NCBI GenBank assembly: GCA_976226885.1
Contig: CDNGLT010000002.1
Span: 1,426,001 to 1,490,000, forward strand
DNA: 64,000 nt
Source of the DNA: Iphione sp. A-MEVVRFRX5
Lineage: Eukaryota
Direction: 5' to 3'
The position numbers and the translations under genes were made by a program. Below are positions 26,842-57,600 of the stretch, piece after piece (positions within the stretch are counted from its first letter, which is position 1; the number at the start of each line of letters is the position of its first letter). The notes beneath the pieces were generated by a model that did no database searches, was not told the DNA's origin, and was given only the letters and a program-made list of their open reading frames with translations.

Positions 26842-26918
26842 TTGGAGCAGGATTTGAACCTGGGTACTTGCAACTTCCATCGTAAGGCTGGCACTCCTAT
26901 CCACTGCTCCACAGAGGC
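26842..26918 (-). ncRNA. tRNA-derived Pol III-like unit (SINE-head-like) inside the MITE
   Basis: A-box-like TGGAGCAGTGG, B-box GGTTCAAATCC, downstream T-run; acceptor stem does not pair. Confidence 0.55.
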
Positions 26919-26927
26919 TGTACAAAG

Positions 26928-27450: not shown

Positions 27451-27944
27451 CATTCTTAAAATGTTGTAAAATGGTTGCAAACATTCTAACTAAATAAAAA
27501 CGTTCTTAAAATGTTGTAAAAAGGTTGCAAACGTTCTAACCAACTAAAAACGTTCTTAAAACATTGTAAAATGGTTGCAAACATTCTAACCAAATAAAAA
27601 CGTTATAAAACGTTTTTAAAACGTTGTGTGCTGGCTGGGACTGCATAGGATGTTGACTGAGCCAGTCCCATCCCAAAATAAAAGTATGTCGAGGACTCCT
27701 CATAACTCTGAACTCTGTGGAGAATCGTTTTCCCAGCACAGAAAACTCGATAAGAGTCGTGCCTGTTTGTCTTAGCTCTCCCCCATCCACTCCCCGTATG
27801 GCAGTGGCTGATGGACCTACTTGATCGGCTAAATTTCTCTTTTCCAGGCTCCGATAAATATCTTCCCTTACTACTGACACATCTACCCCAGTGTCTAGCA
27901 GAGCGCGAAACCCATAAGGGCCTACTTTAATTTTTATTGTTGGC

Positions 27945-28931
27945 CTATCCATCATCCTGTGTCACTTGGTTCACCTGATTGGAAGTAGTTTTGTCCGGAC
28001 ACTGGGACTGGTAATGTCCGAATTTCTTGCAGCCATAACATTGGACCTTCTTAATCACCTTTTGTAACGGCTGCTGAGGGGCACCCTCCTTTTGTCCCTT
28101 CAACTTAGCCTTGGCTGCATAACAGTTCTTTGCCATGTGCCCTTGTTTACCACAACAGTGACAACTGCCTTGGAAGCGTTTTCTTCCTGCATCGATGGCA
28201 TCAACCTCCATGGGTGTATGTTCACAACGCCCCCTCAGAGAAATGTGTCTTAACACCTCCCTTAACACCTCACCTCCCGCACATGTTACTGCAGCCACAA
28301 AATCGGCTGGTCCCTCCCGGATAATCTTCCTTGCTACCTTAGGGTTCTTTACCCCATCTGTGAAAAACTCTACTAGTTGTTGCTGCACCGCTGCTTGCCG
28401 CATTTCTTCGGCGGTGAAAGCATCACGTGCTAAATCGAGTAATCATTCCGAATAAACGTAAATAGTTTCGTCAGATTTCTGCTTGCATTTCCGCAAAAGT
28501 CCCTTAGCATGTACTGGGTCAATTACCTTCCCAAACCTTTGTGACAATTGTTCCTTAAACTCTTCCCATTCTATAGGGGTTAGAACTGGTTCCGGGGCAC
28601 CAGGGTCCTATCCCCTCAATCGGTTGTCTTGTTCTTCAATATATCGGATAACATAATCCGCCACAGGCCCCTCTGCGGTTAACTGGGCCAAACGTTGCTT
28701 AAAACGCATGGCTGCATTAGGTTGTACCACACAGGCTATGGTGGCATGTTCAATGGCCTTCATCCATGGCTTAAAACTCTTTGGCTTTCCATCGAAACTA
28801 GGTAGTGATTGTTTAGCGCCTTGTATACTCAAATCTTCTGTTACCTTAGCTAAATGTTGATCTATTCCCTGAAAAGCCTGTTGAAGGTTCGGCCCGACTT
28901 CCATCTGACCTGGGTCCTGAGGTTCCGCCAT
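27945..28931 (-). pseudogene. gag: gag of element C with two CCHC knuckles
   Basis: FDGKPKSFKPWMKAIE; CHCCGKQGHMAKNC and CYGCKKFGHYQSQC; stop at 28608. Confidence 0.88.
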
Positions 28932-28951
28932 GTGGGACCTTTATTTTAACC

Positions 28952-29131
28952 CTACGGTAAAGCATATGGTCCTGTCTCCTTTCCCACCAAGACCAATTCC
29001 GGAGTCCCACAGCCAGGGATTAATTTGCAAGCTAGGTAGCTTAAGACTCCCATCAATATAGCCACAATTAACAGCATCATGATGATATACACAACCGAAC
29101 GTGAATCAAATTCAAAGGTGGTGAAATCCAT
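28952..29131 (-). CDS. Small single-TM ORF upstream of C gag
   Basis: MDFTT..VVYIIMMLLIVAILMGVLSYLACKL; short, coding status unproven. Confidence 0.45.
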   Translation of the reverse strand: MDFTTFEFDSRSVVYIIMMLLIVAILMGVLSYLACKLIPGCGTPELVLVGKETGPYALP

Positions 29132-29199
29132 GGTCAACCCTGGGCAATTTACCCTAACCCTACCCACTGGGTCTAATTACGGTTTGGCAGAAAAGCTCT

Positions 29200-30020
29200 C
29201 AGAAACTCCGCTCACCTTTCTGCTTCATGGCTGCACGATGTTCTGCTGACCACTGGTGCGATGTAATTCACCCCGTCAGCATCAGACCCGGGGTTTGCAG
29301 CTCCGGCGGTATCGGCACGCCCCTTCCGATCCCCACGCACCACCACAGACATGCCTCTTCATGGGGTATCTGGCCTGCACGGACTGCTTGCAGGAAGCGT
29401 TGCTTCTTCTCATCCACGCGCCTCTCCTTTTCCCGTGCCTCGCGTTAAGTCTCAATGGTGTACCTCAGGTCGTCTGACGGCAGCGCCTCGCTCGGGTTCG
29501 CCATCCTGTCTAGAGCGACAGGGGGTAGCTGCGGGTACCTGAGTCCCTCACGTTCCTCCTCAGTGACCGTCACGGCTAACCGGCCCCGGCTAGGGTTGGG
29601 GGACACTTGCCTAGTGCCCGCATGTGCTGCATGGATGGAGGATCGCAACACCTGTTGTTCTCTCTCCCTTTCAAGCTGTTCAGAGAAGGTCAGCGTTGAC
29701 AGGTCTAACGGTTCTACTGGTTTGAGGGACGTTCCTCGCGGCAAGTCCCACTCCACGACGTGTCGAGGCAGCAACAGCTCCCTAAAGATGAAGAGGGATT
29801 TTGCGGGTCGTCCCAAGACACCACTGATGTATCTTGGTCTGCTCCGTCGGCCTTGGAAGCGCGAGCTTAACGGTCTTCGTCTTTCTACGAAGTACGATGA
29901 ATACACAACATGTCGGTTTGCTGCTTCTGCCACCTCACAGACGAAGGGCGGTTGTTCTAGCGCCCACATGAAGTTTTCTTCAGGGTTGGCTACTGCATTA
30001 TCGCGGCTGATCCTGGTCAC
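29200..30020 (-). pseudogene. Extra 5' ORF (ORF0) of element C, unknown function
   Basis: 191-aa frame starting at the PBS continues past TAA 29445 as REAREKERRVDEKKQRFLQ..CLWWC; 3' end approximate. Confidence 0.5.
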
Positions 30021-30027
30021 GGCACCA
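30010..30027 (-). other. Primer-binding site of C, complementary to tRNA-His 3' end
   Basis: TGGTGCCGTGACCAGGAT versus TGGTGCCGTGACTCGGAT expected from the vertebrate tRNA-His(GUG) sequence as I recall it; 11 nt from the LTR. Confidence 0.8.
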
Positions 30028-30038
30028 AAAGAGATGGG

Positions 30039-30607
30039 TGTAGCACAAAAGCAAACACCGCTAGTCAGGTTCGAGTCAGCCTTTATTCTTCTTCAGCAGT
30101 GATACAGCAACCGTCATCGTCAACAGCAACTGGGGCGAGTCCGAATAACCCTTTGGACTGCCAAACATATATACCCAACTGGACCGGATGCGGTCGTTTA
30201 TTACAAGTCGTTCTCTCAATGGGTCGTTAAAGTTTTACACACTTGACATCATTGACACTTTTGTCCAGGGTCGCGCTCAGGCACCGGATACAACACTTAT
30301 CTTGTTATGGCGCCGCGACACCATGTGAACTAAGTAGACTTTTAATGGTTTGGATTTCAATTACTTTCACAGCCCATAGGAATAATTGCAAAGCGCACGA
30401 AAGACGTCACAAACAAATTTTTCACTCAGTACTTATAGTTACTTCACATAAGGCTTTTACTTGTATTCTGTATATCTGTACACTATACATACGTTGCAAT
30501 GTTCCATACTCATGCTGTACGATTAGCCATATACATTTTATTTCCCAATACATCTATAAGGCAGAGTCTTGTCTTGATACGGTACCATATAACACCACTG
30601 TGTTACA
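30039..30607 (-). repeat. 5' LTR of element C (569 bp)
   Basis: TGTAACAC...GTGCTACA on the minus strand; pairs with 18873-19444. Confidence 0.96.
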
Positions 30608-39191: not shown

Positions 39192-40292
39192 ATGGCAGAG
39201 GGTGATGTAGTAGAGGCTCTAGCTAAACGGTTAACTGTCATGCCAAAGAGGCCAGGTTTATTCCCTACTGATCCTTATGCAGTGGCAGACTGGGTTCATC
39301 GATATGAGGAGTACATGAAGGCAATATATGGTGAGGAATTAGAAGGTCAGGGTCAGAACCGAAGGCCAGCCTGGATGAATGAGTGTTTTGAGAAGGTGAA
39401 GACCTTTTGCCCCCGGACCATTCATGTGCATGTCGGATGCCATACTACCTGGGATGGGCTAAAGAAGTACCTCCTGAGGGAGAAGGGCCCTCCAACATAG
39501 AAATCAGTGAGAGACTAAGGAACACTAAACAAAGTCATGATGAGACCCCCGGGGAATTTGCAGACAGGCTTATGAGGGTATGTGTAGCAGCAGGACAAGA
39601 CAGTGATGAGAAAGCAGGAAGAATATTCATGGAGAATATCCTACCTGAGTTCAGAGAGGCTATGGATCACAGGGATAGCTCTTCCTTTAACAAGGCTGTC
39701 TCTGATGCCCGGAGATGCTGGCAGCGTCAAGGGGGTTTTCGGAAACGGTTGTCTAAAAAGGGAGGTGATGAAGGATTTGCCAGGGGAAATCATGATCTTT
39801 ACCCTGAAAACCTTAGGGGGAGCAATCCCAGCCACTCCTGCCACTCCAGCCACTCCTTCCAACCCTCCGACTCCTGCAGGTTCAACAACACCTGCCACAG
39901 CACCAGCCCCCACTGAACCCAAGAAAGAGAATCCCCCTGCCAGGGAAAGACCTGACGTAGTATGCCACTACTACAGAAAGAAGGGTCATTATGAGAGGGA
40001 CTGCTACAGTAAAAGGAGGGCCATGGGTGATCCTACTGTACCTCCACCCCGTGGACAGCCTCGAGGAATGCCCTTCCAAGGAGACGTCCAGGGAAGATAC
40101 TACCCCAGGGGACCTACCCCAAACTTTCCTTCTCCATTCCCTGCTCAAAATGCTTATCCCCCCTCACAACAGGGGAACTACAGGTCTAACCCACAAAGTG
40201 GCCAGCTGATGGCCATGAACCACATGATGGATCAAATGAGAAGGGAAATAGATCACTTATCCAGAAGTAAGATGTCAAACTCGGGAAACTAG
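39192..40292 (+). pseudogene. gag: gag of B (frameshifted; degenerate knuckle CHYYRKKGHYERDC)
   Basis: Three overlapping ORFs jointly align with A gag; ends SGN*. Confidence 0.88.
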
Positions 40293-40326: not shown

Positions 40327-43300
40327 TCAGTCTGGTGAACCAAAAAAGGGTTATTTGGATAATTGCCTGTCGGACTATGAACATTTTGATGAATCTGCCT
40401 ATGCCAACAACACTGACTCTGATGAATCTAGCCTGCTCAACTGTGAGCAACATGACATAACTGACAAACCTGATCCCAAGAAGAAAGCCTCCCTTTTAAT
40501 ATTAACCAAGCCCCTGGCACGACAGTCTGAAGAGAAGTTAGGCTGGGTAAAGAGCCTCAGGTATCATACAGTCAAATCACATGCCCTCTGTCCTAGAAAG
40601 TTCTCCCATAAGCAAAGTAAAACCAAGGTGTTGGACAGAAATGATACAGACTATAATGGAATATTTTGATTGTTCACATTGTCTGAACCACTGTATATGC
40701 CTCTCTGAAGTAGATTCGGAAGGTAACACTGTACTGAAATGTGACTGTGCTATTGCAGAGGGTTTATGTATTAATAGTCTTGAATTTCACATCCTCATGT
40801 TAATTCGCTCATCTATCATGAGACATAAGCAGGGTGACTGCAGACCCAATTGTGAGTTTATGGAAACATGTGTTCATGATGAGGTAACTTTCTAGAGTAA
40901 GAGAATCACAAGAAAAACACTTAAACCAAGATGTGGGAGGATTCCAGCGTGTCCTATGGGTGGTGAACATCTCATGCTCCCTGAAGAAATAGAACACCAT
41001 CAGCTGTTTTTGGACTTTAATCTTCTCCCAAAAACCAATGAAATTTTCGGCATTGTCTCAAAATCAGAGACGTACAAGGGGCATGATCAAAATAGGGGTG
41101 TCCTTATGTCTAGAATGAGGGTTATGCCTGATGGCCAGTCAGAGCTGGTTCACCACCCACTGACAGAAGATTGTACCACTGAACTCAAACTAGGGAATGC
41201 CTTATTTAAGGCATTGGTAGATACAGGCGCACAGGGATGTTGCATGAGCAAGAACGCGTTTGATAGGCTGAAAGAGGACAATTTCAAGATGACTGTAACC
41301 TCGTCCAAAGCAGAATATGTCATGGCAAATGGTACTGTCTCTAAATCCTCTAACGTCGCTCACGTCCAAATCCCTATCGATAACTGCCAATACCCTGTTA
41401 TACTCCACGTAGTTGAGGGTCTCTCCTATGACATCATTTTAGGAAGGACATTCCTACATCAATTTTTGATCAATCTTTCTTTCACCCCAAAAGCCCCAAC
41501 TACATTCCCTGTTGCCTTGCCAGAGGATGTTTTGCTTCAACCTGAGTCTGAAACCCTGGTGTGGGCTCAGATTCTGGGGAATGGGGAGTCTTTCGATTCA
41601 CAAGAAGGCTTCTATCAGGACACTCTAGAGGCAACCCCAAGAAAAATAGTCTCCAACAAAGAAGTCCTAGTCTGAGTCCATGATAACAGAATTCCCATAT
41701 CCCTTCTTAACTACTCAACCAAACCCCAAATGCTTAGACAAGGTCTAAGAGTGGGATCTTTCACCAGAGGAATACCTTACAATACCTCCACCCTCACACA
41801 AACCACTGTCCATGTAATCCACACAGCTGCACAAGAAGTTCCAGTCGACCTCTCCAAATCAAATTTCACCCCACAACAGAGAGAAATATGTAAAAACTTG
41901 TTGCAATCCAAAAGGAAAGCCTTCGCTCTTGAAGGGGACATTGGGAAAACTCACCTAACACAACACCGGATTGAACTCATCCCTAACTCTACCCCAACTC
42001 AGGCTCAACCTTTCCGCATGTCACCAATGATGAGAGATGAACTAGAACGTATCGTTTCAGACCAAGAAGACAAAGAGATACTAGAGAAGGCAGGGGATTG
42101 TCCCTGGGCCAGTCCTGCCTTCCTAGTCTCAAAACCTAATGGGAAATTTAGACTAGTGGTTGACTACAGGAACCTAAATTCTCAAACAATCACCCAGATG
42201 TTCACTATTCCCCGAGTAGATGACACTATAGATGCTATAGGTAGCAACAAACCTCAGTACCTCTCTGTGATGGATCTAGAAATGGGGTTTCACCAGATTC
42301 CCATTCATGATGAAGATAGGGACAAGACAAGATTCCCATTCGTGATGAAGATAGGGACAAGATAACATTCTTGACTCCCTGCGGGAAATACAGGTATAAG
42401 ACTGTGCCCATGGGATTGAAGAATTCCCCTGCTTTCTTTCAAAGCATTGTAGACATGGTCCTGTCAGGCCTAAAATACAAAATATGCCTTGCCTATATGG
42501 ATGACATTGTTGTCTTTTCCCCAACATTTGAGAGGCATATGGCTGATCTGGGACAGGTGCTGGACAGGTTGATTGAAGCTGGACTTAAGTTGAAACCCTC
42601 AAAATGTGATTGGTAGAGCTGAAGTGAAATTCTTAGGGCACATAATAATGAAGGGATCAAACCCTCTCCCGACAATGTTGAGAAGATCAAGGACATGAAG
42701 ACGCCTGTGACAGTATGGCAGGTTAGACGGTTCTTGGGGATGACAGGTTACTACAGGAAGTTTATTCCAAATTATGGGGTGAAAGCCAAACCACTATATG
42801 ATTTGACCAGGAAGAACACCAAATTTCTTTGGGGACCTGAGCAGGAGGAGTCCTATCAGATACTCAAAGATGCCCTGACTGATGACCGCTTTCTCCTTTA
42901 CCCTGACTTCACCAAAGAATTCTTTCTCGCCACTGATGCCAGCAACTATGGCATGGGGGCTAGCCTATCTCAGACAGACACTCACGGGAATGTAAGACCG
43001 ATAGCATTTTGGGCAAAGGCCTTCCAGGGGGCGCAACTTAACTATTCAACCACGGACAAGGAGATGGCTGCAGTCTCCCATGCAGTGAAACACTAGCGCG
43101 TGTATCTTGAGGGAGCCAAATTCCGCATCCAAACTGATCACAACCCCTTGGTCCACATCCTTGTCAACAAGTCCCTTGAACATAAAGATGGTAGGGTAAT
43201 TCGTTGGATGGAATTCCTCCAACGCTTTGACTACATAGTCCAACATGTGCCAGGCACCTCCAACTCAGTCCCAGATGCACTTTCTCGACTTGATGTTCCC

Positions 43301-45292
43301 CTTGAGAAAGACCACCTGTATTCTGTCCATCTTACTCGAGCGGTACCCCAGGAAACATCTAACCCCCCTCTCCCCAGAAACGCAGTGGAGTTAACTCCGA
43401 ACCTATCTGTCCCAGATGACAAACCAACAGACCCAATCCTCCTCAAAAAGGGACCCAATAACAGAAAGAGAAGAGAGAGACAGTTTGTTCTCCACTCAGG
43501 AGCTGAAAGGCACCTCAAGTCCTCTCACATCACATTGCCTGAAATCCTGTCTGCCCAGAGACATGATGCCTTCTGGAAGCAAACAGTCATATTCATTAAA
43601 TATGGGAGACTACCTGAGGATGACAAAACAGCTTGTCGAGTTCTACTTAGGGAAGAAGATTACTTTTTGTATGAGGGCATTTTGTTCAAAATGTCTTCCA
43701 CCACAGGCCCAAATGCACACACAAATGTCAGGCTTGTAGTCCCTATCTCCCTCTGAGAGAAATTCCTTCAGCAGAACCATGATGCCCCCCATGCATGACA
43801 TCTTGGACCCGTCAAGATGCTCTCCAAGATGAGGGAGACTCTTTTCTGGAGTGGAATGAGTGAGGATGTACATGATTACTGTGCAACCTGTGTCAAGTGT
43901 TGCCAGACTAAACGCATGACTCGCCCCATCAGGCCTCCGCTGACCCTTAGGCATCCAGCTCCGAGCCCCTGGCATACCATTAACATGGATGCATTAGAAC
44001 GACTCCCGCTCACCTCCAGTGGCAACCGCCACATCATCACCATAGTGGACTACTACAGCAGATTCCTGGTAGCTTGGGCCCAACCTGACCTGAGAGTGGA
44101 CACCCTCATCTCCAAGTTCAAAGAGAACATTGTCTATCGGTTCGGAACTGTTAACACCATAGTGTCAGACAATGGCTCAGCATTTATCTCTGACAGGTTC
44201 ATGAATTACTGCAGGCAGAATGGGATGAAACAGAAGTTTGCTACCGCAGGACACCCCCAGACCTCAGGATTAGTTGAGAGAGCAAATAGGTCACTATTGA
44301 CTATCCTCAGGAATTATGTTAGTAAAAATCAGAATAACTGGGACAGTGGTCGGCCCTCAATCTGCTTTGCATTAAACACAACCAAGGCAGCAAGGACGGG
44401 ACAAAGCCCTTAGCTCCTCCTGAATGGCTACAAACCGCGTTGCCCCGAGATGAATTCCATACCCCTTCTGGATGATGAACCCATGACAGTGCAGGACAGA
44501 TTTGGACAGCACCTGGAGAATCAGCACAAGGCTCACCTGGCCGCTAAAGAATCAGCTGAGAAGTATGCTCTAACCATGAAAGATAAACATGATGAGAATG
44601 TCTATGACCCAGAGTTCAAGAAAGGCAATGTAGTATAGCTATACATGCCCAGGCTCAAAGACTCCTCCCTCAAACTGAAGTTAGCCTGAGTATATCATGG
44701 TCCTTATGCCATAGTAGAATTTCACACCCCCTCGACAGTCTTTTTGAAGTGCCTACAGACAAAGAGACATTTGGCCCGACCAGTAACCATTAGCCGCTTG
44801 AAGAGAACAGGATCGGTGGGACCCACAGTCAACAGAGAAATCCATGAAGAAAATCTTACCCATGAGGATCTGCCCCCTGATAGTTTTGTACCAGACCAAT
44901 CGAATGAAGTAACTAACCGTGCCCCTTTCCCATCAAGAAGGCAACGGCTCCTGCCCAAGGGCCACTTGGCACCTATTCGAGAAGAGGACCCTTCCCTAGG
45001 TCTAATAGGCTATTCACCAGAAACTGAAGCAGACAAACCCATCGAGACCACAGATGCTGGTACTCAAAAAGAAGCCCCAAAACCCCAAGAGGATGATGAG
45101 GATGATGACCTGAGTGTTTGCCTTGATGTACACCTAGAAGCCAACGACAAAGGTACTGAAGACCTCTCTACGGATGATGAAGACCAGAACCCATCAACAC
45201 AGACTCCTACATGCAATGATGATGAGGGTGTTATTTGGTTGATGGCAAGAATGCAGAAAACCTTCCCCCAGCAGCCATCAGCAGCACCATGA
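40289..45292 (+). pseudogene. pol: pol of B: Cys-rich domain, PR, RT, RNase H, IN, acidic extension
   Basis: LVDTGAQG; YMDD; ATDASNYG..TDHNPL; CVKC; SDNG..GLVERAN. Many stops; 35-bp tandem duplication at 42296-42365 frameshifts RT. Confidence 0.93.
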
Positions 45293-46449
45293 GGAAGAGC
45301 CAGTATAAATCCAGTGGTACAGTTAGAAAAGTTCACTATACCTCCTGGGACAAAGAAAATAATTGTGTGGAAAAATCCATATGAGGACCCAGATGGAAGA
45401 CACCCGCTCATCTATCCTGGATTATCAGATGCTCCTGCTCCCTCCGTTAACTCCATTAGCACTAACACTCCCAGGCCCCTCAATCGAGTGAAGGAGAGGC
45501 CTAACCCATGGTGGCGGCCACTGAGATGGAACTCCCTTTTTCGGACCCTCTCCAGGAAAAGCCTGCATAAACCTACCATACAAACCAAAGAGCTCCCATA
45601 GTTAAGCCCCCATAGGCCTCCCAACATGTATGTCTTAGCAGGGACTTCACACACTTGAAAATAGCCAATAAAAACTACTGCTAAATGATTTCATTATGTG
45701 TAAACTTATTTTCTGAGGACAGGTGGAAGGCGAGCATATGAACATATAAGGCACACTTTCATGGCATAAACCAAAATTTGCATGATACATTCAAATCTTA
45801 AGCAAGCGGCAGACACGGGGAAGTGATAAAGCCCCCATATGGTGAACTCACTATTCTCTTTCCATGCCCAGTTGGCCAGAAAGGTTTTGATGATTAGGGT
45901 TAAAATAAATTGAAAACAGGCACATTATAAAAGGATACGAAGTGGCACTGAAAATGCGCACTTCTCGTGCACAAATTGTACACGGTATATATAGATACCT
46001 AGCCCCACCACGGGGAGGCTCCTGCCATACTGTCTCAGTGCCTTGTCATGCCACACCTTGTATGCTCCATCCAACCCTCGTCCTGATACCTAATGCGATT
46101 CCTCTGGAGTCTTAGCCGATCACATGATAGGGCACAATCCTAGTGGAGAGGACATGGAGACTAGCTTCCTCTATGCATTCCCTCCATTGCATTATCCTTT
46201 CTCCATCGCTACTATGTATGATGGTCAGGAATCAAAGGGAGCCCTGATACCGCAGCCTACAGGCCTTATAAGTCGGTATGAGAGCTCACGTCCTAACTAA
46301 ATACACATCATCTGCATATGCGGAGACCCCTCACTGGTCACCAGCATACAGTTCATCCAATCTATATTATGTGAAGCCCCTGCCTCCCTCCCTCGACATT
46401 GTATCCATCATAGCCACCATGTTTTTTCCCTTTCTCTACTCTACAGATA

Positions 46450-46998
46450 ATGTTTAAGATAATTTGCACTCGGGAAAGAGCCCTGGCTGAAGGAGAGGCC
46501 CCAACATTGGATGACTGCATACCCCAATTCGCCTTACTACTATTCAGGGCACACCAGGGCATGAGGCACAAAGACATCTCAGCACAGGAGAGGCATCACC
46601 TTCTTCAACACCTGTCATACCGAGTGAATGACCCCGGTATGGCCTTCATCCAGTGGTGTCCCAACTTCTTCAACCTGGAGTCCCCCCTGCTGCAGCTCGC
46701 CCTGGTGCAGGTGCTCACCACATACCTTGAGACTAACAGGGAACCTATCCTACCCAAAAGGTTCTACCCCATGTGGGATACACTTATTATGCTGACACTG
46801 CATGAACAATGCTGCTGTGTAGCCTTTGGGCCAAGTTATAACAGAACTGCTGCGGCCGAGGCAAAAAAAACTTATCTCGCAAGGACCAAATTGAAGCCCC
46901 CACATCCTGGCATATTTGCCGATCCCAATATACTTAAAGAGGACGATGGGGATTGGGACACTGTGGCTTGGCCCCCAAGTATAGTAAAAGCCACCTAG
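46450..46998 (+). CDS. Accessory-family paralogue B1 (182 aa, intact)
   Basis: DCIP..LF..GMRH..FFNLESPLLQL..Y..REPILP.RFYPMWDTL..DDGDWDT; acceptor AG 46445-46446; AATAAA 47030. Confidence 0.82.
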   Translation: MFKIICTRERALAEGEAPTLDDCIPQFALLLFRAHQGMRHKDISAQERHHLLQHLSYRVNDPGMAFIQWCPNFFNLESPLLQLALVQVLTTYLETNREPILPKRFYPMWDTLIMLTLHEQCCCVAFGPSYNRTAAAEAKKTYLARTKLKPPHPGIFADPNILKEDDGDWDTVAWPPSIVKAT

Positions 46999-47168
46999 AG
47001 ACTACACAAGGGCTTACTATTATTGAGACAATAAAAACATTATAATTCAGACACCAACTTGTCTCCCCTCAATACAAATTCGTTGTTTTCAATTGATATG
47101 ATGCTAACCGAACAACCCTCCACCAAACTCCTAAAGAACCTTTTTGCCCTTTTAATATCTATTTAGGT

Positions 47169-47739
47169 ATGTCAGATCAGCTTAGGAAACTGCAGCGCCG
47201 GGCCTCCCAGCTATGTCAAGGCAGGGTCCCTACCCTATCAGATTGCAGGCATGAGCTTACCGCAGAACTTTTTCAGCCTAATTCGATATTTCTACCTGAC
47301 TCACCTCTCCTATGGTGACCACTCACCATACTGCATGAGCCTGCCCTCTTGGAGGGGCACGTTCTTTGACCTAGATGCCACCTTGGTTCAGCTCTCAGTG
47401 ATTAGGCTGCTACAAAACTACATGCATACACAGCAAGAACCCTGCCTACCTGCTCACTTTTACCCCTCATGAGACACTCTAGTAATGCTCACCCTTAGTG
47501 AATCTATATGGGTCTTCATACAGGATGCCTCCTTGGACCTCATACAAGAAACAGCAGTCAGGGCCGTACTACAATATCAACTCAGGTTCTCTGACCATGA
47601 TGTCTAAATCCACATGCTTACAGCCGGACTATACCCCTGTCCTGTGACAACTGAAATAGATAGTGATGACTATATGTCTACAGATAGCGAGGAAGAGGAC
47701 AATATGAGTATATCCACAGATGATGATGAATCACAGTGA
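47169..47739 (+). pseudogene. Accessory-family paralogue B2 (frameshift and stops, acidic tail)
   Basis: MSDQLRKLQRRASQLCQGRVPTLSDC..ELFQPN; FFDLDATLVQL..Y..EPCLPAHFYPS*DTL (TGA at the conserved W); acceptor AG 47165-47166; AATAAA 47871. Confidence 0.78.
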
Positions 47740-49559
47740 CATACCCACATCTTGGTGATACCGTACTGTGATAATTTACTCAGAAGCACTCCTGATCAAT
47801 TACAGAGCAGAACTTATCAGGTTTCAGTAAAAAGATACTATACTGAGGACAGTTACTCAATGCAGTCAATAATAAAAAGGAATCCTTAAAATTGTGTTTT
47901 TCCCTTATCTCTATCTTAGACGGTTGCAATAGCAGAAAGTATTGAGTATTCCCATTACAGCCATAATCTACAGCAAAATTAAAATCTATAATTACAATGT
48001 TCTTGACTAATATTTACACAAGTAGTATATACCATTTAAACTAAGGAAAACAAACACAGGACCTTAAATTTCTATCACTTTTAATAAATTAGCACATAGT
48101 ATAGCAGTTACAGTAATAAGGCCAATGTCACTTCTAAAAGGATTAACTCCTGGGACACACACCTCTACACTCTACTTGAGTAAATAACTACTTGACACAC
48201 CCTCCAGGGCTTCCAGAATACAAAAATCTGACAGAAGCGACCCTCCTAGTCATGTTTCGGCTTCTGAGCACATGCCTTGCCCTCTGCGGGCCCAACCTCT
48301 CCTGGGGTCGGAGACTGCAGGCGACTTAGGTTTGTCAGCACATGCTCCCCCGTCGCGCAGCCCACTGCATACACGCTCATAGACTGAATGGCAGCTGGCC
48401 TCTCCTCGCATATGACAAGAATACCTGAAAAATATATGGACAAAAACAAAAAAAGGAGACACGGTCAGAATAATCAATCAGCACTGAGTGGATGCACACA
48501 TGATAGACCATGACAAAAAAAAAAAAAACCCACACTATAGACAAGCGCATTGGAAAGGAACTGCATCTGCCACCATCCCACACATGCGAACCCATGCTCT
48601 ACTCACTCTCAAGCGGCACCTCTCCTCTGATAGTATCCCTTCGGAGTACAACCCGCAGCCCAGCAACAATCCTCCTCAGGAAATTGATGATCCCGGTACA
48701 GCTTGGGCACCAGCCTGGACTAAAATACTCCCTCACGGACATTATCTCTCCTCTTTTTCTGTCAGAACCACACTAGACAACCTCCACACACTTCTGCTGT
48801 TTAACCCTATGTGGTCAAAATCACGTCCAGTTCATGCACTGGCCAGCTCACAGCTGCCACGTAAACCCCTGACACTTCACCCGAACAGGTGCTGGATGTT
48901 TTCTCATCAATTACTCAGTAGTAAACACGTTCTACAGACTCCTACTAAAAAGGTTATTCATTAGCCCCTGCAATCGATATAAAACATTTCTTGTTTATAC
49001 CAAAATGGTTCCCACCCGGCCACTCTAACAACCTTGCGCGATGAGCCCCACATGTCAGGTAGTGCCCTCTCGACACTCGGACGTCTCTCTCCCTCAACCC
49101 CTCTATCAATAAGCCCAACAACTCCACTATCTGGAAATCTGTATCACACAAAGTAGGATAGACTACAGGGATAGCATCTAGCTTTCAACCAGTGCTCCTC
49201 AACCGGATACCATGACTGAACAAAAGCATATACATATATCATAACAAAACATCTGCATTATTCACACCTAACCTGTCAGTGTACACTCACTCCTGATGCT
49301 CACGGCCCTGGCTCTGCTTCTCCTTGATCGGGCTAGTCGGATTTGTTGGCACTCTACACTCCTGTCAATGGCTGGCGAGGTATGCCCAGGATAGTGTCCA
49401 ACCTAAAAACAGTAGGATGATAGTAGGGATTACATCAGTCTCTTGGTTTTTACATAATCATACATATGCTCTAGATACACAACATGCACAGTATTTAACC
49501 AACTACTTACACAATCAGTTCTCTACACATATACCCAAACACCCACCTTGACACTTTTT

Positions 49560-50520
49560 GATAGTAGGTGACATAAAAATTCATAAATCTCCAGTTCTAA
49601 TTGTCCAATTTACATGCAACAAATGCCAAAAGAAAGCTCATACCCTCAGCTCTTCAATGATACCATCATCTCTTCTCTAGCATGAACCCTTCCCATAAGC
49701 AAATGGCAAAACGTCGATTGCATTCCGTCACATTCTAATGAGAATAAGTGGAAATGGTTGTGCCAGCTGACACTCTAACACTGGGTGTACATAAAAATTC
49801 ATATCTCCAGTTTTAATTGTTGTATTGACATGCAGAAGCCACCAAATAAAAGCTTAGATCCTTACCTTTCCACTGGTACCATTATCTAGTTTATAGGAGT
49901 AATATCTAATGGAGAAATTTGCAAAAACTTCGAATCACAATTGGCTGAAATTCGAATGACACCGACTTGTCACTTTTGACAGAAGGGTATCAACATGCAA
50001 CGACCACCAAAAGAAAGCTTATCACCTGCTCTTTCCAGTGGTGGGATCAGCTAGCCTGTAAAATGATAATTTCATACCGAACGGACAAAAAACATCTGCC
50101 GAAATTTGAATGTCTATTCCCTCTGTCACTCTGACACTGGGTGTATAGAAACATTCCTATCTCTGGTTCTATTCATCGTATCAACATGCTACAACCACCA
50201 AAAGATAGCCCAGAGTCTCACCATTCCAAATATACCATCATTTAGTCTCTAAGATGGATATCTCATAATGCAATTAATAAAAAACTTCGAATTGCGATCG
50301 ACCAAAGATTTGAATGCCTACTCATTCTGTCACCCTGATACTGGGCGTATAGAAAAATTTATATCTCCGGTTCTAATGATCGGATTTACATGCAACAACC
50401 ACCAAGAGAGAGCTCAGAGTCTGACCTTTTTGCTGATACCATTATTTAGTCTATAGGATGAATATCTGGTAGCAAATATTGCAAAAAACACCAACTCACA
50501 ATTTGTCAAACTACGCCTAT
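49560..50520. repeat. Degenerate ~204-220-bp tandem repeat, ~5 copies, in B accessory region
   Basis: Recurrent atctc(c/t)(a/g)gtt..acatgc..ccacca..agc blocks near 49580, 49800, 49990, 50150, 50350. Confidence 0.7.
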
Positions 50521-52909
50521 TATCACCCACCCTGGGCTGACACTGACGTCCAGCAAAAAGTAAACACATCAAAAGGACATTTTAGCAGTGACACTCACCT
50601 TCCATACTTTATCTTCTCCTTCTCAAATATGTTTCTGAAGATATGCATCCATGGGAGCCTTTTAGATGCCTTCGTTTCCTTTAAAAACAGGATTTTATGC
50701 TAGCACACACCAGCCTCGGCGGCAGACAGCAGTCTGGGTTAGACTTGCAACCCCACTCCCTCCCCAGTGAAGATCCAAATGGCCATTGTATCGACCACGT
50801 CAGGTTCCCCGATAGCTCTCTCTCAGGTTAACCAGGCCATATACATCCCTTTCACCCTGCTATCAGGAGAACTGGCCTGACTAGGCCACTCCCTCGAACT
50901 GACCGCTAATATCAGATCAGGTAACCCGTTCTCCTGCCATATTAAGAGCTCTGCACATCGAGTCTCACCCTGCTTGCCTCAACCGTGCATCCCTTGGTTT
51001 AACTGACCCCATCGGGGCACCACTCCTCTAGCACTGTATCCTTGCACTATTTCTGGAACTGCTCTTCACAACACCTTATCCATGGCATCTTTTTTTCTCA
51101 TGTGCACTTGGTGCTGGCCAATCAAATAATACTTCACCTGGAATTAATTACATGCCTCTTAATACTTCACACATATCTAGAAGGATAAATAGCATTTCAT
51201 GCAAGACAGACAAAAACTTTTCATGATAGGCTAGTAGTGGGTCTATGGTTGAGTCAGTAGGTGCGTGGCGAGCACCATGCAGGATGGCAGTCCTGAGAAA
51301 CCTAGACTTGCCACTACACTCCTCCTACTTGATAATAATGTTCCACTACACAAAAAGGTTTTTTTTTGCCTTGGCTATATACTTAAAGCATTTTGCCAGT
51401 CCTACAAATCATACCCATGCAAATTCCACTGCTGAAGGCACCAGAACTTTCAGACTTAGAGATTATCATCTTTGCTACATATTCTTTAACACAGGGACTT
51501 ATGCTAGTCTACCCCAGGAACATACCAGTCGTGAGGTGCCGGGATGCTCACCCCAGCTGACCCTCCCCTCATTGGCAACAACGTAACTCTTTCTGTTTGA
51601 TCCAACACTGCACCCCTAATTAGGACTCGCCTCTTCAAGATGCTGCCGAAGATACCCCCCGCCTTATAAAGAGATGGTTAATCAGATGGACCACCCTCTG
51701 AGTAGCATAAAAACAGGCCCTGCCAAACCCTTCAACCGCTCTTCTGTGCCAGCCCATAGGGACGTCGGATCAACCAGCACCCAGTCACTTTCTCAGTCCA
51801 TCAGATCACTCAGCACCAACTGACCTTATCTGAAGAACTGATCGTGATCACTCATCTCTCTGTACTCAGTGAGATACACCTGACAGATATCAAAGGTCTG
51901 CGCCAAGTCAATTTACTGCATCACATATACCAACCATCATTAAGCACACACACTACCAGTTAATTTTTCTGAAGATTGAATCTTGGACCCCTGAAGAGTA
52001 CTCTGACTGACCCGTGTCAGACTCAATCAGGATCTAACCACTATAGACAATCACTTTCCAAGGGACCTATCTCTCAAGGCAGATTCCCCTGGATCCCATC
52101 TCATTGCATCATGGACGCAAGGTAAGCCATCTATTACATACATATCTTGATCTTTTGAAAAGTCCTGTGGATTTTATCATGGCCCCCCTCCCAGACACCT
52201 TAGGCCCACATATTATACTGCTAAACACTGCAGACTATCCCTACCACATTCTCTTTCCCTACAAAATGACCATTAAGTCACACGCTTCAGCTACATCCAT
52301 TTTGATCAATGCTCCAACTGAAATGTTACACCCTCCTAACCATGTTACAACACATCTGTCTGTCAGTCCGTCTATTTGTCTCTCTCCTCTTCTTTCCTAC
52401 AAATTCACTCTAGCAAAATGCAGTACTGACTCCTGCTCCTCTTCAACCTTATCAGGGCCTCCTTCACTAGAAATTTCTGACAATTCATACATCCTCCATG
52501 AATTCTCTTCCCTCCTGCAACTACGTAAAGTTCCACAGCTACCCTTTTCCAACTGTTTTTGATTCCCTTTTGGGGACACTCACACATAAAAACATTGCTG
52601 CTATGGACGTTGTGCAAGACTCTTCACACATTTTTCTACCATTATCCACAGTTTACAAGTCACCCTCAAAAAAAAAAAAAAAAAAAAAAAATATTCAAGG
52701 CAATCTGAATTCCCTTCTCTCCCCTTCTTCCCCAACTGCACTCCAACTGCTCCTGTCACCCACATTTCTCCAATAGTGGCTGCATATTCTATTCACCTTT
52801 TTATCACTATCCCTTCCCCATCCACATTAGCTTTTTGTCCTTCAATTTACCTTATGTCAGATGCTTTTCTGGTCACTAATAAAGTTTTCTCTTTCCCCTT
52901 CTACACCAG

Positions 52910-54396
52910 ATTCAACCTGTCTCAAGCATTCGCCACTGCTCTGTTCAGCGAATTTGGGCGCTTCCTCAGCTCCCAAGGTGAACTCCCTCTGACGAATGCA
53001 GCCATTCAGGACGATGAACACGTCCCCTCGATGTCTACTGGCTGGACACACCATAACCGGGGACTGACACCTACCCTGCGAGATCCTCGCCTATTCGGAA
53101 CCCTGACCTCGGCAGACCAGCCAGTGTTACCACTGCCGGGCTTCGAGGCTGTCGGGGTGCCAGCCTTCCAGGGCCAAGCTTTGGGCCCTTTCTGCACCCC
53201 AACAACTTGCCCCCATGGCCTCGGATATGAGAGGTGCCAACAGCCCGTCCCCTTATCACGCATGGCTCAACTACCAGCTCCTGCCTGCCCTCCATCTGCA
53301 TCACACACTACAGGTCCCGTGACCACCTACTCTTCACCAGCAACTGCCCTTTTGCCCCCAATGGAGCCCGACACCCCGCAGGACCAGCCCAGGCCTGAAT
53401 CCCCCACAACCCTTCCTTGTCCCGCCCCACCGACCCTGTTGACCACCCCGTCTGTCCCCACCCCAAGGCTTCCATCTTCTCCTGATGCCTCGCAAGTCCT
53501 ACGCACCCCATCACCACCCTCGGCAGATGTGAACCCCCCTGCCCTGGCCGGATTGCCTGACTGCTCCACCCCCCTATCAACCCCACCGGCTTCACCATTC
53601 GTGGACACACCCTCCGTGGCTTCACCTCCTGCTTCCTCATGTCCTCCACCCATGTCTCCGGCTTCTCCTGCCCCATCTCCTCACTACCCCCCCTCTGCCG
53701 CATCCTCCCCCCCCTCATCCTCCCTCACCTGCTCACTCTCCTTCTCCTTCTGAAGAGGACTACATACTACCCCTCTCCTACCAACCAGGATATTACTTCA
53801 CCAACTCCCTCCCATCCGACCCCATAGGTTTTAGGAATGCGGAGATGGAATGCATCTTCTCACTGGCGTTCCCTGAGCGTCAATACTCCCATGAGGAGGC
53901 GCAGGCAGCATATCGTGGGCATGTTGGCCACAAGATGCGCCGCCGTGGCATCTGCCGCCATTGTGAGCACCTCCACTACTCTACTGACCCCTGCCTTCCC
54001 CCCACCTCCCAACCCTCTATCCAGTGGAAAGGTCTACGAAAGTCCTTCACCACTGATGCCTGCCACCGCGTCACCCTCAGACGCAAAGCTCGGAACTCTG
54101 CCCTCTTCAGAGATGCGCTAACACACAAGACCCCAAACCTGGCTAACTCTATCTCCTTCAATATCTACTCCCCCAAGGTTGCCTCCCAGACCGGTGAAAT
54201 GCTCACAACATACCTCCGTGACCCTTTTACCCCACCTCTCCCAGCAAGTGAGGTGCCCCTCTGGGACTACCTGTGCATGCTTGCCCTGCCGGCTCAAAGC
54301 CATCACTTGGGGCCATTGCGGGACTACCGTGCAGCCCAACAAGCCCTTGAGGAAGCAGCATCTCGAACCATATTTGGGCTAGAAAAAGACCTGTAG
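52910..54396 (+). pseudogene. Pre-env accessory gene of B (P/S/T-rich, CxxC-H-C, family domain); frameshift near 53710
   Basis: YQPGYYFTN..CIF..CRHCEHLH..C..WDYLCMLAL.AQSHH..EEAASRTIFGLEKDL aligns with A 1102-1722; 5' end approximate. Confidence 0.75.
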
Positions 54397-54649
54397 CCCT
54401 GAACAGCATAGATTTTTCATCATTTTGTGTTTCTTTGGCTAAATAAAACGTCAACAATTTTTACACTGCCTTCCGTGTTGCTCCTTTCATTGGGAGTTCA
54501 GTGGTAGAACTCAAGTTTTTAGTGCTTGGGAGGGATATGTACATTTAAAAGCCTAACACTTCAATAAACACACACATAAAAAGAAAAATAAAAAGGGGTA
54601 ATAATTGAAAGTAAGTTAAAACCCTGCCTACCTATCATTGCAGGTCGGC

Positions 54650-56810
54650 ATGGATACAACCCTCCTGCTCCTACTTATCACCATAGTGCCCATGGCATAA
54701 TCCACACACATACTGAGACAGAATTTTGGAGTCCTTTCTTTTTGTGATCCCAAGACCAACATCCCTCAAGACCAGCAATAAAGCCAAACCACTCCAGGAA
54801 GAACTCCCATGTGCTTGGCGAGGGGCATGCCCCTGCCTGGGAGCCTTCATCCACAGAACCCAACTCCTTTATGAAGGAGTCTTTCAGGAAGTAGTTGAGG
54901 AGGACCTTCAACTCAATAAACTTCTAGCTAAACCAACCTCAGAATCAGTGGGAAGAAGACCAAGAGCATGGTTTGGCTTCCTTGGATCAGCCTCTAAGGC
55001 ACTATTTGGAACTGCAACCATGGATGACATACATGAACTGTCTAAACATATTGACACTTTATCTGCATCAATAGACCCATCACAGATCAAAGCCCTACAA
55101 ACACAGTTAGCAAATTTGTCAAATCAAACTTCAGTCACAATGCATGCAGTAATTCGACAAGTAAGCCGTCATGATAAAGCCATAGGAGATATTATACAGC
55201 AAACAGATCAGTTGTCCAGGCAGGCCACCTATATCCTTGAGAACCAGACCCATCTAATTGATGTCGGCTTCAAAGCCCAAAATTACATTGCTGCCCTTAT
55301 ACTCAAAATCACCTACCTCCAGAAAGTTAGAGATCAATACCTACACTACCGACTCGCAATAAATGATCTACGCATAGGCCGTTTACCAGGAAATCTGATC
55401 AGCCCAGAGCAAATAGCCCAGGGCCTTACTAAGGTCAGTATGGGACTTCGGGGACACCATCAAGTAATGATAACAGACCCAGGATTTTATTATGAACACG
55501 CCCTCACAAAATTCATGTATTCAGCAAGATATCTTTTTCTGCATGTATCAGTCCCAGTAGGCCCTGCTGCCAACCAACACGACTTATATCGCATACATAC
55601 ATTCAGCACACCTTTCTCCACAACTGCCACACACGGTTACACCAAAATACAACACATGCCTGCCTATGTAGCTGTATCCCCCTACCAGGCCTCTTTTATG
55701 GAAATGACAGCCCATGAAGTAACACTCTGTCAGGGACATGACATTTTGACTTGTAAAACTTTACCACCTCTCAATAGAAAGCCACTACATACCTGTTCTA
55801 TGGCCTTATTCCATAACAGACATGACCTCATGCAGCACCTGTGCCAGTTCACTGTGCATCCAAACTCTACCATGACTCCGTACCTCAGACGACTCAATGA
55901 TATAGCCCTTATTTCAGCAGGAACTCATCCTGTATCAATCATTTGCTCAGGGAAGATTGAGGCCATCCATTGTCCCCTCTGTACCTATAAACCACCCTGC
56001 AATTGTACCCTGAGGGTAGGACCATACGATATGCCCCCATCAGGCTTCTGTGATTATACTCAGGCCCTAATGCCTGTACATGGTATTAATCTAGCAGTAG
56101 CCACAGCATTTAACATGTCTCTCCCAAATTTCACTGCCTCTGCTACCTTTAACGACTCCTTTTTCTTCAATATACCACTACACAGAGCTGCTTCGTTTAA
56201 CTTGTCCCAGTCATTGCCTAAAGATACAGGTGTCGACCTTGCCAGGGTTGCCTCACAGATAGATCAAGCCCGTAAGAACATGATTAAACGTGAAGAGGAA
56301 ATGCCACACTGGCCCACCTGGCTCGCAAGCCAGGCCAGAACAGTAGCCACACTGGTCATTTGGATATGGAACTCAATCCATTCAGCCATAACCATAATCC
56401 TTCTGCTATTTGTTATTCACCTACTCACAAAAGTAAATAAGCTGGCATTTTCCCTAGCACTAACCCAGGTGACTGAATCTGCCCCTGTACTACTAGGACC
56501 GACTATCCAGCCGACCACCAACCAAACACCAGAAATACAGATAACCTTGAGTCATGTAGACTCTGTCCAGATAGCAGCTAGTGTCTTGTTCTGTGTGTGG
56601 GTTCTCTGCAGGCTTCTTCAGGCCATTCTCAGATGCTGCAAACATAAATCCACAGAAACAGGCCCTGTGCCATCACCCCCAGGCTTTCAAATTCTCTCGA
56701 AGGTAGGATCCCCTAGAGACCATACCACACTTCTCCATGAATTTAGGACGAACGCCCTTCCAACAACCACCTTCCTGGTTCCCAAGGTAGTTACAATGGG
56801 GGTGGAATGA
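54650..56810 (+). pseudogene. env: env of B, F-type fusion glycoprotein; signal region frameshifted and internally deleted
   Basis: ATG 54650 MDTTLLLLLITIV; ILRQNFGV in another frame and ~17 codons missing relative to A; 694-aa open body with RRPR|AWFG, Cys-rich domain and two hydrophobic segments. Confidence 0.85.
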
Positions 56811-57284
56811 CGATGCCTCTCTTGCTTTGTCCACCTCACATATTCCAACCCCTTATACCGATCTGATGCTATCTCTACTCGTAAGGTGAATCTGCCGCAG
56901 ATAATATGAGTCCCATTGTGGAAAGGGAAACATATTCAACGTCTCTTGCTAACTCTCAAAGACCTCCCGGCCCAGGCTATAATTCTTGGACAACAGGGAT
57001 GGGCACAGCCCCTCCAAAACGGACTCTACCCAAATCTCCCCATTATGCCATCTGGTCCATCCACCACTATGCAACCCTCCTCCTCTGCCAAATTCCATAA
57101 CCGACCCAAATCAGTCATGTCCTCACCTCTGGCCTACAATGACCTGCTGGCAAAACTGGACGTGAGCGAAGTTATTGAGGAACCAGCTTCTGTAGATGTG
57201 TCTCAGCCCAAGCCGAAAGCCAATAATATTGTTAAACTGTTCAACTCCCCCTATGCAGACTCAACAGAGAGAATCGCCTACAAT

Positions 57285-57600
57285 ATGGCCGATTTTCAAA
57301 GTGGCCGATGTTCAAAGTGGCCGATGTTCAAAGTGGCCGACCATGTTCTTGTATGGCCGTGTGTTTTCGCGGCCAAATCTGTCTGTTAAAATGGCATCAG
57401 TCTAAAATGGCCGTTTATGATGTTCTTATATGGCCGAGCTATTCTCTTTATATGGCCGTATTTTATTTTAAACCTCAAGTTGTCACGTGTTTTTTTATGG
57501 CCGTAAATAATTGAATGAAATGCATCGTAGACTGATTTACAGACAGATTTTCCCCTGGTAACACACGGCCATAACCGACCATGGGCGCTCATGCATAAAA
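57285..57600. repeat. Short tggccg-core repeats at the 3' end of B
   Basis: tggccgatgttcaaag-type 16-mers x3 and scattered (t/a)atggccg. Confidence 0.7.

Follow-up and report, generated by a model that had tools for sequence, protein, structure and literature searches.

How the genes between pol and env of an oversized retroelement could be expressed is the question raised by this locus. Elements copied via one full-length RNA normally end all their transcripts in the 3' LTR, because cutting at a poly(A) site inside the element destroys the RNA to be copied. In the window (the whole 64-kb stretch of DNA analysed) two elements, A on the minus strand and B on the plus strand, carry between pol and env a row of accessory ORFs, nearly all with a putative 3' splice site before the start and the majority with an AATAAA hexamer behind the end. 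A sequence-only reading had proposed that this cassette grammar is functional and common to both elements; it is statistically supported, more strongly than first argued, but two of the five cassettes quoted for it fail. The best explanation, to which as a whole we assign a probability of roughly 55%, is that A and B are decayed copies of a single lineage of Ty3/gypsy elements of ~18-20 kb with an F-type env, and that the cassettes would serve as alternative terminal exons off a shared upstream leader, closed at internal poly(A) sites in the manner of adenovirus.

The features that define the elements are as follows.

39192..40289, plus strand: B gag, in several broken frames, assigned by similarity to A gag; the 5' end of the element is not visible
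40896..45601, plus strand: B pol, with protease, RT, RNase H, integrase, GPY motif and tail, and many stops and frameshifts (Pfam)
15465..15470, minus strand: AATAAA, 144 nt past the end of A pol
18873..30607, minus strand: element C, a conventional env-bearing gypsy element, unrelated and nested in A pol (Pfam)
54650..57389, plus strand: B env, F-type (PF12259, E 1.3e-9, above the cut-off)
1..948, minus strand: start of A env, acceptor 948, 6 nt before the ATG at 941; the gene leaves the window

Searches of successive pieces against Pfam gave the Ty3/gypsy order protease-RT-RNase H-integrase in both A and B, together with a zf-CCHC knuckle in A gag; the GPY motif was seen behind the B integrase in the 44690 frame. 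Ty3 RT was the best among 16 PDB matches of the RT (E 5e-21), with caulimovirus (3e-11) and retroviruses behind it, and the tail of B pol matches that of A pol. Both copies are dead; between them synonymous sites have reached saturation although the proteins are retained, as in integrase (pN 0.10, pS 0.81). The sense strand is C- and A-rich and G-poor. No LTR or terminal repeat of A or B was found in the 64-kb window, the element ends being cut or outside it, and no further copies of this type of element were found. Element C, whose LTRs are identical at 545 of 569 positions and which is flanked by a 4-bp target duplication, served as a control and sets a lower bound on the age of A. The pol homolog search gave no matches at a cut-off of 1e-30, and no pol relatives were found in viral contigs; four integrase-like loci, 21-27% identical, were set aside. 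Troyka elements are characterized in the main text of PMC12440569 by the lack of env and of GPF/Y and by a long-spaced zinc finger, whereas the present elements have an env, a GPY motif and a standard knuckle.

The B env product has a signal peptide, a furin-type RRPR site at 54954 and hydrophobic stretches near 56350 and 56570. Its reading frame is interrupted at codon 17 by a stop, shifts near 54740 and meets further stops at 56808 and 56907, and its 3' end enters another repeat near 57270. It is 44% identical to A env and 23-29% identical to three env-like relatives. An F-type or gB-type env behind pol marks errantivirus-like elements, and such an env is found here; it does not lie directly behind pol, within the 1 kb that is a screen limit, and no formal criterion, in the main text of PMC13524379. 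Env begins 9-10 kb behind pol (9049 nt in B, ~10 kb in A once the insertion is set aside). The gap holds orphan paralogous ORFs of ~180 aa, here called X (two in B, five in A), and a longer gene with an X-like end domain.

46450..46998, plus strand: B X1, an intact orphan helical ORF of 182 aa
47169..47739, plus strand: B X2, an X paralog with an acidic tail, broken by one frameshift and two stops
52910..53753, plus strand: B proline-rich ORF (21% Pro), the counterpart in position and make-up of A 2924-2169
53773..54396, plus strand: B zfX, in which a region of Cys/His motifs precedes a partial X-like domain; 36% identity to A 1725-1102
13279..14209, minus strand: A X1, acceptor 14209 (3 nt before the ATG), with a Pro-rich extension and no AATAAA after it
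11040..11597, minus strand: A X2, acceptor 11597 (2 nt), followed by just a variant hexamer
10296..10889, minus strand: A X3, acceptor 10889 (3 nt), AATAAA 10301
9612..9977, minus strand: A X4, acceptor 9977 (3 nt), truncated by a ~4.7-kb insertion
3285..3820, minus strand: A X5, acceptor 3820 (4 nt), AATAAA 3320, 35 nt inside the present stop
1102..2931, minus strand: A Pro-rich ORF and zfX, acceptor 2931 (6 nt before the ATG), AATAAA 1114 overlapping the ORF end

Among the X paralogs, synonymous sites have reached saturation (pS 0.60-0.97 in 21 of 21 pairs), and A X3 and X4 have evolved under purifying selection (dN 0.31, dS 2.2). These two form the sole resolved grouping of the X tree, which thus gives no one-to-one pairing of the A and B cassettes. 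A profile search in all six frames found no additional X copy in B 47750-53700, and the proline-rich ORF of B has no significant sequence match to A. X had no match in Pfam, none of 1489 candidates scored in a search of 5.8 billion proteins, the best score in the ESM Atlas was 0.79, and no relatives were found in viral or metagenome contigs. One match in a library of 1.84 billion, to a repetitive protein over 30 profile positions (E 1.5e-4), was judged spurious. The AlphaFold model of X is all-helical (pLDDT 66.5); the best VIA Z was 5.0, and Foldseek gave no match at E 0.001 in PDB or BFVD, although such blanks do not make the fold new. The structure model of zfX was unusable (pLDDT 36).

Acceptors and donors were scored with generic frequencies of the textbook type and not with a model trained on the host, and the X starts were fixed by homology, aligned within three codons.

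46423..46446, plus strand: B X1 acceptor, 3 nt before the ATG, score 11.9
47147..47166, plus strand: B X2 acceptor, 2 nt before the ATG, score 5.1
54631..54643, plus strand: B env acceptor, 6 nt before the ATG, score 3.2, rank 17 of 702
48241..48254, plus strand: the site quoted at 48252, unsupported as an acceptor

In a model-free test a YAG acceptor was found 2-4 nt before the ATG at all seven X starts, compared with 65 of 702 sense-strand ATGs (P 4e-8). For X and env starts together, 8 of 9 have an acceptor where local shuffles expect 0.8 (P ~6e-9). It tells against a shared leader that this evidence comes from two dead copies and that the seven X cassettes, having a single ancestor, are not fully independent. 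The distance from acceptor to ATG varies in phase (2, 3, 4 or 6 nt) and thus suits a non-coding leader. All six acceptor strings quoted in the sequence-only reading, and its AATAAA hexamers at 45667, 47030, 47871, 52878 and 54442, were located where it had placed them. Its B X acceptors at 46446 and 47166 are beyond chance, ranking 1 and 9 of the 702 sense-strand ATGs of A and B, and the former is also first of the 1152 AG dinucleotides in B. Its acceptor at 48252 was not borne out: the score is -5.2 (rank 215 of 702), there are only 12 AG-free bases, the site fails the model-free test and it opens no more than 25 codons.

The two env acceptors, put forward as nearly identical, agree at 13 of 19 flanking positions, the highest value among 78 site pairs, whose mean is 6.1 (sd 2.0), a likeness that is indeed conserved past the splice consensus; the A site itself scores 1.7 (rank 48 of 702), which is weak, and did not pass the model-free test. 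A spliced env acceptor is by itself ordinary for such elements, element C having one too (22689, score 9.2). As to the conservation claimed between the elements, the arrangement is the same but the DNA is not alignable, with sequence-level likeness only before env; a blastn alignment of A with B from pol to env gave a single match of 53 nt, which falls within X coding sequence. Since the synonymous sites of X are saturated and the acceptors and poly(A) signals are still present, selection must have kept these signals.

The hexamers behind the homology-defined ORF ends of B are listed below.

45667..45672, plus strand: AATAAA 66 nt past the end of B pol
47030..47035, plus strand: AATAAA 32 nt past B X1; the next acceptor is 136 nt away, and the interval has no donor-like GT
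47871..47876, plus strand: AATAAA 132 nt past B X2
54442..54447, plus strand: AATAAA 46 nt past B zfX

The claim that AATAAA follows upstream ORFs in B thus held at four of four such ends. For A and B together, AATAAA lies at -40 to +150 of 8 of the 10 ORF ends, in a range picked after the data had been seen, against 1.58 expected from local dinucleotide shuffles (P 5e-6); with the stricter range of 0 to +150 the count is 6 of 10 (1.33 expected, P 5e-4). The two ends lacking it are those of A X1 and A X2, and 7 of the 11 sense hexamers between B pol and env lie away from defined ORF ends, both observations weighing against the shared-leader model. The accessory region of B has these 11 in sense and none in antisense, and the 6.4 kb of B gag-pol has no sense AATAAA. 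T content 15-55 nt past the eight signals is 0.375, compared with 0.24 for the region, a background that includes coding DNA.

No usable donor was identified in the spacers 47030-47166 (B) and 11040-10889 (A), and the X bodies upstream of these contain weak donors (best 2.2 in B X1, -0.8 in A X2); acceptors there would therefore need a distant donor. There is no strong donor near the gag starts (best 4.4 in B, 3.4 and 3.5 in A), which, with the missing LTRs and the weak A env acceptor, also speaks against a shared leader. Candidates for its donor were seen behind A pol only, where palindromic repeats that contain four donor-like sites (15260, 15202, 15078 and 14925) come after the AATAAA. A different arrangement is predicted in the distal part of B.

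52111..52121, plus strand: predicted short coding exon, ATG plus 8 nt, followed by the strongest B donor
52122..52909, plus strand: predicted GT-AG intron, 788 nt, in phase

Donor 52122 ranks first of the 687 GT dinucleotides in B, and its phase of 2 fits the downstream frame; a simple leader does not predict such an apparent coding first exon and intron of its own, a further point against that model. The acceptor at 52909, which had been paired with AATAAA 52878, is indeed strong (third of 1152 AG in B), but no ATG lies within 86 nt behind it and the hexamer follows no recognisable ORF end. AATAAA 52878 overlaps a CTAAT near the 3' end of the predicted intron, which we take to be branch-point-like, and its position fits the branch point of the in-phase intron.

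From these patterns we infer splicing, cleavage, a leader, a switch and any role of X. Each cassette would consist of a 3' splice site, ATG, ORF and poly(A) signal, and one donor in the shared upstream leader would be joined to one acceptor per message. The leader may lie in the lost 5' end, in gag, or behind an internal promoter just past pol. Cleavage at the next AATAAA would then yield a separate mRNA for every gene, the arrangement known from the adenovirus major late unit, and the row would have expanded as entire X cassettes were duplicated together with their signals. The full-length genomic RNA would have to skip every acceptor and pass at least four internal poly(A) signals uncut, so the element would need a switch, such as U1-type suppression or a Rev/CERV-like protein of its own. 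Several acceptors right before starts and, at sequence level, several internal poly(A) signals behind ORFs (8 of 10) agree with an adenovirus-like unit, a comparison of the mode of working and not of kinship. Rather tentatively, there may exist invertebrate "complex" Ty3/gypsy retroviruses of ~18-20 kb, with an adenovirus-like unit, a shared leader, up to seven self-terminated cassettes, an expanded orphan family and a regulated read-through switch for genomic RNA, possibly run by an accessory protein.

Several other explanations of the same motifs were weighed. The cassettes could be free-standing genes, spread by tandem duplication without a shared leader, each equipped with an internal promoter and a poly(A) site of its own as well as a short first exon and an intron. 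The exon and in-phase intron at 52111-52909, TATA-like boxes at 45926 and 45986 before B X1, donor sites within the long spacers of A (15260-14925, 4729) and the internal env promoters known in Tor3b/4b (main text of PMC4402516) are in line with this, but the 136-nt and 151-nt spacers are donor-free, the ORFs before them hold just weak donors, and 7 of 10 end-to-acceptor spacers have no TATA-like box; we regard it as unlikely. A spliced-leader operon, in which cleavage behind an ORF goes together with trans-splicing of a host leader onto the following acceptor, would dispense with donors altogether. The donor-free AATAAA-to-acceptor spacers of 136-201 nt with an ATG right after the acceptor resemble those of nematode operons; the remaining spacers measure 324-1261 nt and a clear cis donor pairs with acceptor 52909, so that such an operon is very improbable.

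The acceptors might also work while the internal AATAAA are idle, with all subgenomic RNAs ending in the 3' LTR like those of ordinary complex retroviruses. The hexamers would then reflect A-rich spacers, and the spacers are indeed A-rich (0.29-0.37), most B hexamers lie off defined ends, and genomic RNA would be lost to internal cleavage. This too seems improbable, given that dinucleotide shuffles, which keep composition, expect 1.6 of 10 where 8 are seen, and that the B gag-pol sense strand has none. Finally, both kinds of motif could have arisen by chance on a strand rich in C and A and poor in G, or could persist passively from a single captured gene, and 48252 is indeed background. The motif positions, their excess over chance (P ~1e-7 to 1e-9 under composition-preserving nulls), the paralogy, the purifying selection and the donor-free short spacers are directly established, and at saturated neutral sites passive leftovers would have vanished; this explanation is already largely refuted and hardly credible.

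Among known systems, the env-carrying Ty3/gypsy elements (errantiviruses in the wide sense; main text of PMC13524379) have the same order of gag, PR-RT-RH-IN pol and F-type env and an acceptor before env; A and B differ in that accessory cassettes spanning 9-10 kb separate their pol from their env. The survey by Chary and Hayashi (PMC13524379) accepted POL-ENV distances of <=1000 nt and regions of up to 10 kb, limits by which elements such as A and B could not be caught, and "accessory" and "splic" are absent from its main text. In Oikopleura Tor elements env behind pol is expressed via a spliced acceptor, as in Tor3a, or an internal promoter, both options weighed above; unlike for A and B, no paralogous cassette array was seen there, and "polyadenyl" is absent from the main text of PMC4402516. 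For the shGAG RNA of the plant Ty1/copia element EVD, the main text of PMC5580714 describes splicing coupled to an internal poly(A) site, which full-length RNA reads through and U1 suppresses. EVD, a copia element, has a single internal site, which serves gag, whereas A and B are gypsy elements in which at least four such sites each follow a different gene. The adenovirus major late unit (main text of PMC9499273) has a shared leader, many acceptors and several alternative poly(A) sites, its last gene requiring read-through of the earlier ones, but belongs to a DNA virus with no full-length RNA copying; homology is not claimed, and the leader was not found in A and B. Foamy-like fish ERVs (main texts of PMC5210030 and PMC6431247) are large, up to 17 kb, with accessory ORFs of which one lies between pol and env, as in A and B, and the Cer1 protein CERV (main text of PMC10309623) is a spliced accessory protein required for export of unspliced RNA. 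The former are Retroviridae and Cer1 is an env-less gypsy element, and neither a row of paralogs nor an internal poly(A) grammar was seen in these three papers. X shows no similarity to any searched protein. The literature searched (main texts, with few subscription papers) yielded no account of a gypsy element that carries a cassette row of this kind.

If alternative terminal exons are indeed used, a gypsy lineage would be keeping at least four internal poly(A) sites under selection, that is, alternative last exons on the scale of a DNA virus in retroelements, which would point to an unknown read-through switch. As the broadest published env-gypsy screen barred pol-env distances above 1 kb, giant members rich in accessory genes may be widespread yet missing from the counts, perhaps even in phyla for which none are reported.

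The spacers remain unexplained by RNA searches: Rfam gave five matches, all below the gathering score, ARAGORN gave 0, and none of seven spacers folds better than its shuffles (z -1.3 to 1.1). An exact sequence is shared by A and B shortly before env.

54497..54509, plus strand: 13-mer, exact in A 1075-1063 and nowhere else in the window

A shared run of 13 is reached in 3 of 3000 shuffles. In A a hairpin is not the predicted fold at this position; in B the 13-mer makes up the loop and inner stem of a hairpin.

Two decayed env-bearing Ty3/gypsy elements, A and B, carry between pol and env rows of cassettes, most consisting of a putative 3' splice site (acceptor), an ATG, an ORF and an AATAAA hexamer. 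As an arrangement, this cassette grammar is real and goes beyond chance in both elements. The window is animal DNA dense in retroelements, and A and B are both dead copies with many stops and frameshifts. Their pol has the order protease, RT, RNase H and integrase (Pfam), Ty3 is nearest to the RT among solved structures, and B env matches baculovirus F (Pfam, E 1.3e-9). The LTRs of the nested element C differ at 24 of 569 positions, and C is younger than A. No LTR of A or B was visible in the window.

Elements and insertions, in window coordinates
~37890 to window edge, minus strand: element A, broken up by a LINE, element C and an insertion
~33460-37700: LINE in A
18873-30607, minus strand: element C, an LTR element nested in A, with a complete LTR pair, a 4-bp target duplication and its own F-type env and acceptor
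~9611-4900: insertion in A, ~4.7 kb
gag ~39190, pol 40896-45601, env 54650-57389, plus strand: element B

Based on tblastn and profile searches, the ORFs at 46450 and 47169 in B and at 14205, 11594, 10885, 9973 and 3815 in A were assigned to one family, X, and a partial further copy was found to end the last accessory gene of both elements. The X1 ORF of B (46450-46998) is intact. This gene, zfX (B 53773-54396, plus strand; A 1725-1102, minus strand), has a conserved Cys/His pattern ahead of the X-like domain, possibly a zinc-binding module; the pattern had no match in Pfam and its fold model was unusable. No relatives of X were found in any database search, making it an orphan. The predicted structure of X is helical, with moderate confidence, and the only supported grouping in the X tree is A X3 with X4.

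Since ORF starts were set by protein homology, acceptors could not bias their choice. A YAG acceptor lies 2-4 nt upstream of all seven X starts. A model-free acceptor test was passed by 65 of the 702 sense ATGs and by 7/7 X starts (P 4e-8), and five X acceptors are among the top nine of the 702 by rank. When the 60-nt stretch ahead of every X and env start was shuffled with dinucleotides preserved, an acceptor was expected at 0.8 starts and seen at 8 of 9. Further strong acceptor-like sites in the decayed middle of the B accessory region, at 47919 (score 7.4), 48765 (10.5) and 51494 (5.9), all on the plus strand, are perhaps relics of lost cassettes; that at 48765 falls within a 158-codon open frame.

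Of the 10 ORF ends, 8 have AATAAA in the range -40 to +150 nt (against an expected 1.58, P 5e-6), the exceptions being A X1 and A X2; in the narrower range of 0 to +150 nt the count is six (P 5e-4). The pol-env interval of B contains 11 hexamers, all of them on the sense strand (block shuffles 3.7, sd 1.8), and the 6.4-kb sense strand of B gag-pol contains none. In A the hexamer total is not raised (3 and 2 vs 2.9 and 1.3) and only the placement stands out.

The sequence-only reading had quoted five cassettes in B, and every quoted string was found in its place. Three of the cassettes hold. Of the other two, the one with the acceptor at 48252 ranks 215 of 702 and does not rise above background, and for the one at 52878-52909 a conventional intron is the better reading. 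Acceptor 52909 looks real (3rd of 1152 AG) but is not of the acceptor-ATG kind, because donor 52122, the strongest of 687 in B, ATG 52111, the only one within 85 nt upstream of that donor, and a matching phase point to a predicted intron at 52122-52909. The phase at 52122 fits the proline-rich frame behind 52909, which by phase alone is one chance in three. AATAAA 52878 would then sit at the expected branch-point place, overlapping a CTAAT that resembles the branch-point consensus.

Conservation of the grammar between A and B, also claimed earlier, applies to the arrangement, which both share beyond chance, but DNA is alignable only in the pre-env spacer; elsewhere in pol-env, blastn gave a single short match, within X coding sequence. 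The env acceptors are indeed alike: they share 13 of 19 positions, against a mean of 6.1 over the 78 pairs, of which theirs is the best. An exact 13-mer is common to both pre-env spacers (B 54497-54509, plus strand; A 1075-1063, minus strand); 3 of 3000 shuffles reach this length. In all, 36 spacer pairs were compared, but these two spacers are direct counterparts. The 13-mer stands 55 nt (B) and 39 nt (A) behind AATAAA, with a run of T after it. A hairpin of six pairs in B has the 13-mer as its loop and inner stem. That stem is also possible in A, with both sides of two pairs changed, but it is not A's predicted fold. The hairpin loop resembles a tRNA D-loop or an initiator element.

All 21 X pairs have saturated synonymous sites (pS 0.60-0.97), as do env, zfX and pol when A is compared with B (0.69-0.85), while the proteins were kept. 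Unselected DNA before the ATGs would be randomised at such divergence, which argues that acceptors and hexamers were maintained. Selection, as seen in two dead copies, strongly implies that these signals functioned, as had been argued from the env acceptor; an env acceptor by itself is ordinary, C having one too, which scores 9.2 and comes right after the point where its pol tail apparently ends (22716), with no AATAAA in between. Duplication of whole cassettes, signals included, is the simplest history.

No GT in the 136-nt spacer of B that separates the X1 hexamer from the X2 acceptor scores above -9, none occurs at a usable distance in the 151-nt spacer before A X3, and the ORFs preceding both spacers have weak donors only. 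Lacking usable donors there, the B X2 and A X3 acceptors would have to find their donor further upstream, before the poly(A) signal of the preceding cassette, and the cassettes would thereby be alternative last exons. We favor this model, in which each cassette is joined to a distant upstream donor, at a probability of about 0.55. Acceptor-to-ATG distances of 2, 3, 4 and 6 nt suit a non-coding leader. Candidate places for the leader are the missing 5' end, gag, and the stretch after pol, behind an internal promoter. In that stretch the palindromic repeats of A include four donor-like sites; B has two TATA-like boxes there and no good donor. That every cassette instead has its own promoter is unlikely. 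It is still less probable that the hexamers are non-functional, and slightly less again that the acceptors serve trans-splicing; an origin of the whole pattern by chance, given the acceptor and hexamer statistics, is very improbable.

Under the alternative-last-exon model, pol being under strong selection, the elements were presumably copied through full-length RNA, which would have to get past every acceptor and no fewer than four hexamers; in each element one of these comes immediately after pol. Cer1 exports unspliced RNA by means of a spliced accessory protein (PMC10309623), and an X or zfX protein may, as a guess on this analogy, act likewise. Plant Ty1/copia elements handle internal poly(A) read-through with U1 at one site, in contrast to the at least four hexamers of A and B (PMC5580714). 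Tor elements are already known for an env that is spliced or internally promoted (PMC4402516). Foamy-like fish ERVs have accessory ORFs and genomes of 17 kb (PMC5210030, PMC6431247), and a multi-acceptor, multi-poly(A) layout is known in adenovirus (PMC9499273). Identity with Troyka is ruled out by the env and the GPY motif (PMC12440569). In the main-text literature searched, no gypsy element was found to combine a row of paralogous cassettes with internal poly(A) signals; supplements may list related elements.

Several other features were observed. At 56810-57389 (plus strand) the env frame runs on beyond two stops, and its alignment to P0001, an env relative, persists there into the C-terminal part, which shows that env was longer than the listed ORF. 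Between gag and protease there is a Cys/His-rich domain of >100 residues (B 40551-41100, plus strand; A 32189-31839, minus strand), for which a Pfam search gave no match. Short palindromic repeats form an array at 38040-38800, between A and B, whose 5' parts face each other head to head there. In strand bias the array matches A, and similar palindromic or tandem arrays occur in A at 14900-15260 and 4160-4500. Within C there is also a small insertion, in which a 60-nt tandem array occurs (26700-27620). Four diverged copies of a ~200-nt repeat, absent from the rest of the window, occupy B 49570-50500, a block which is probably an insertion. The ORF at 63144-63995 (plus strand), unrelated to A and B, has a weak PHD-finger match, 60-nt repeats and intron-like signals upstream, and is possibly a DNA transposon gene.
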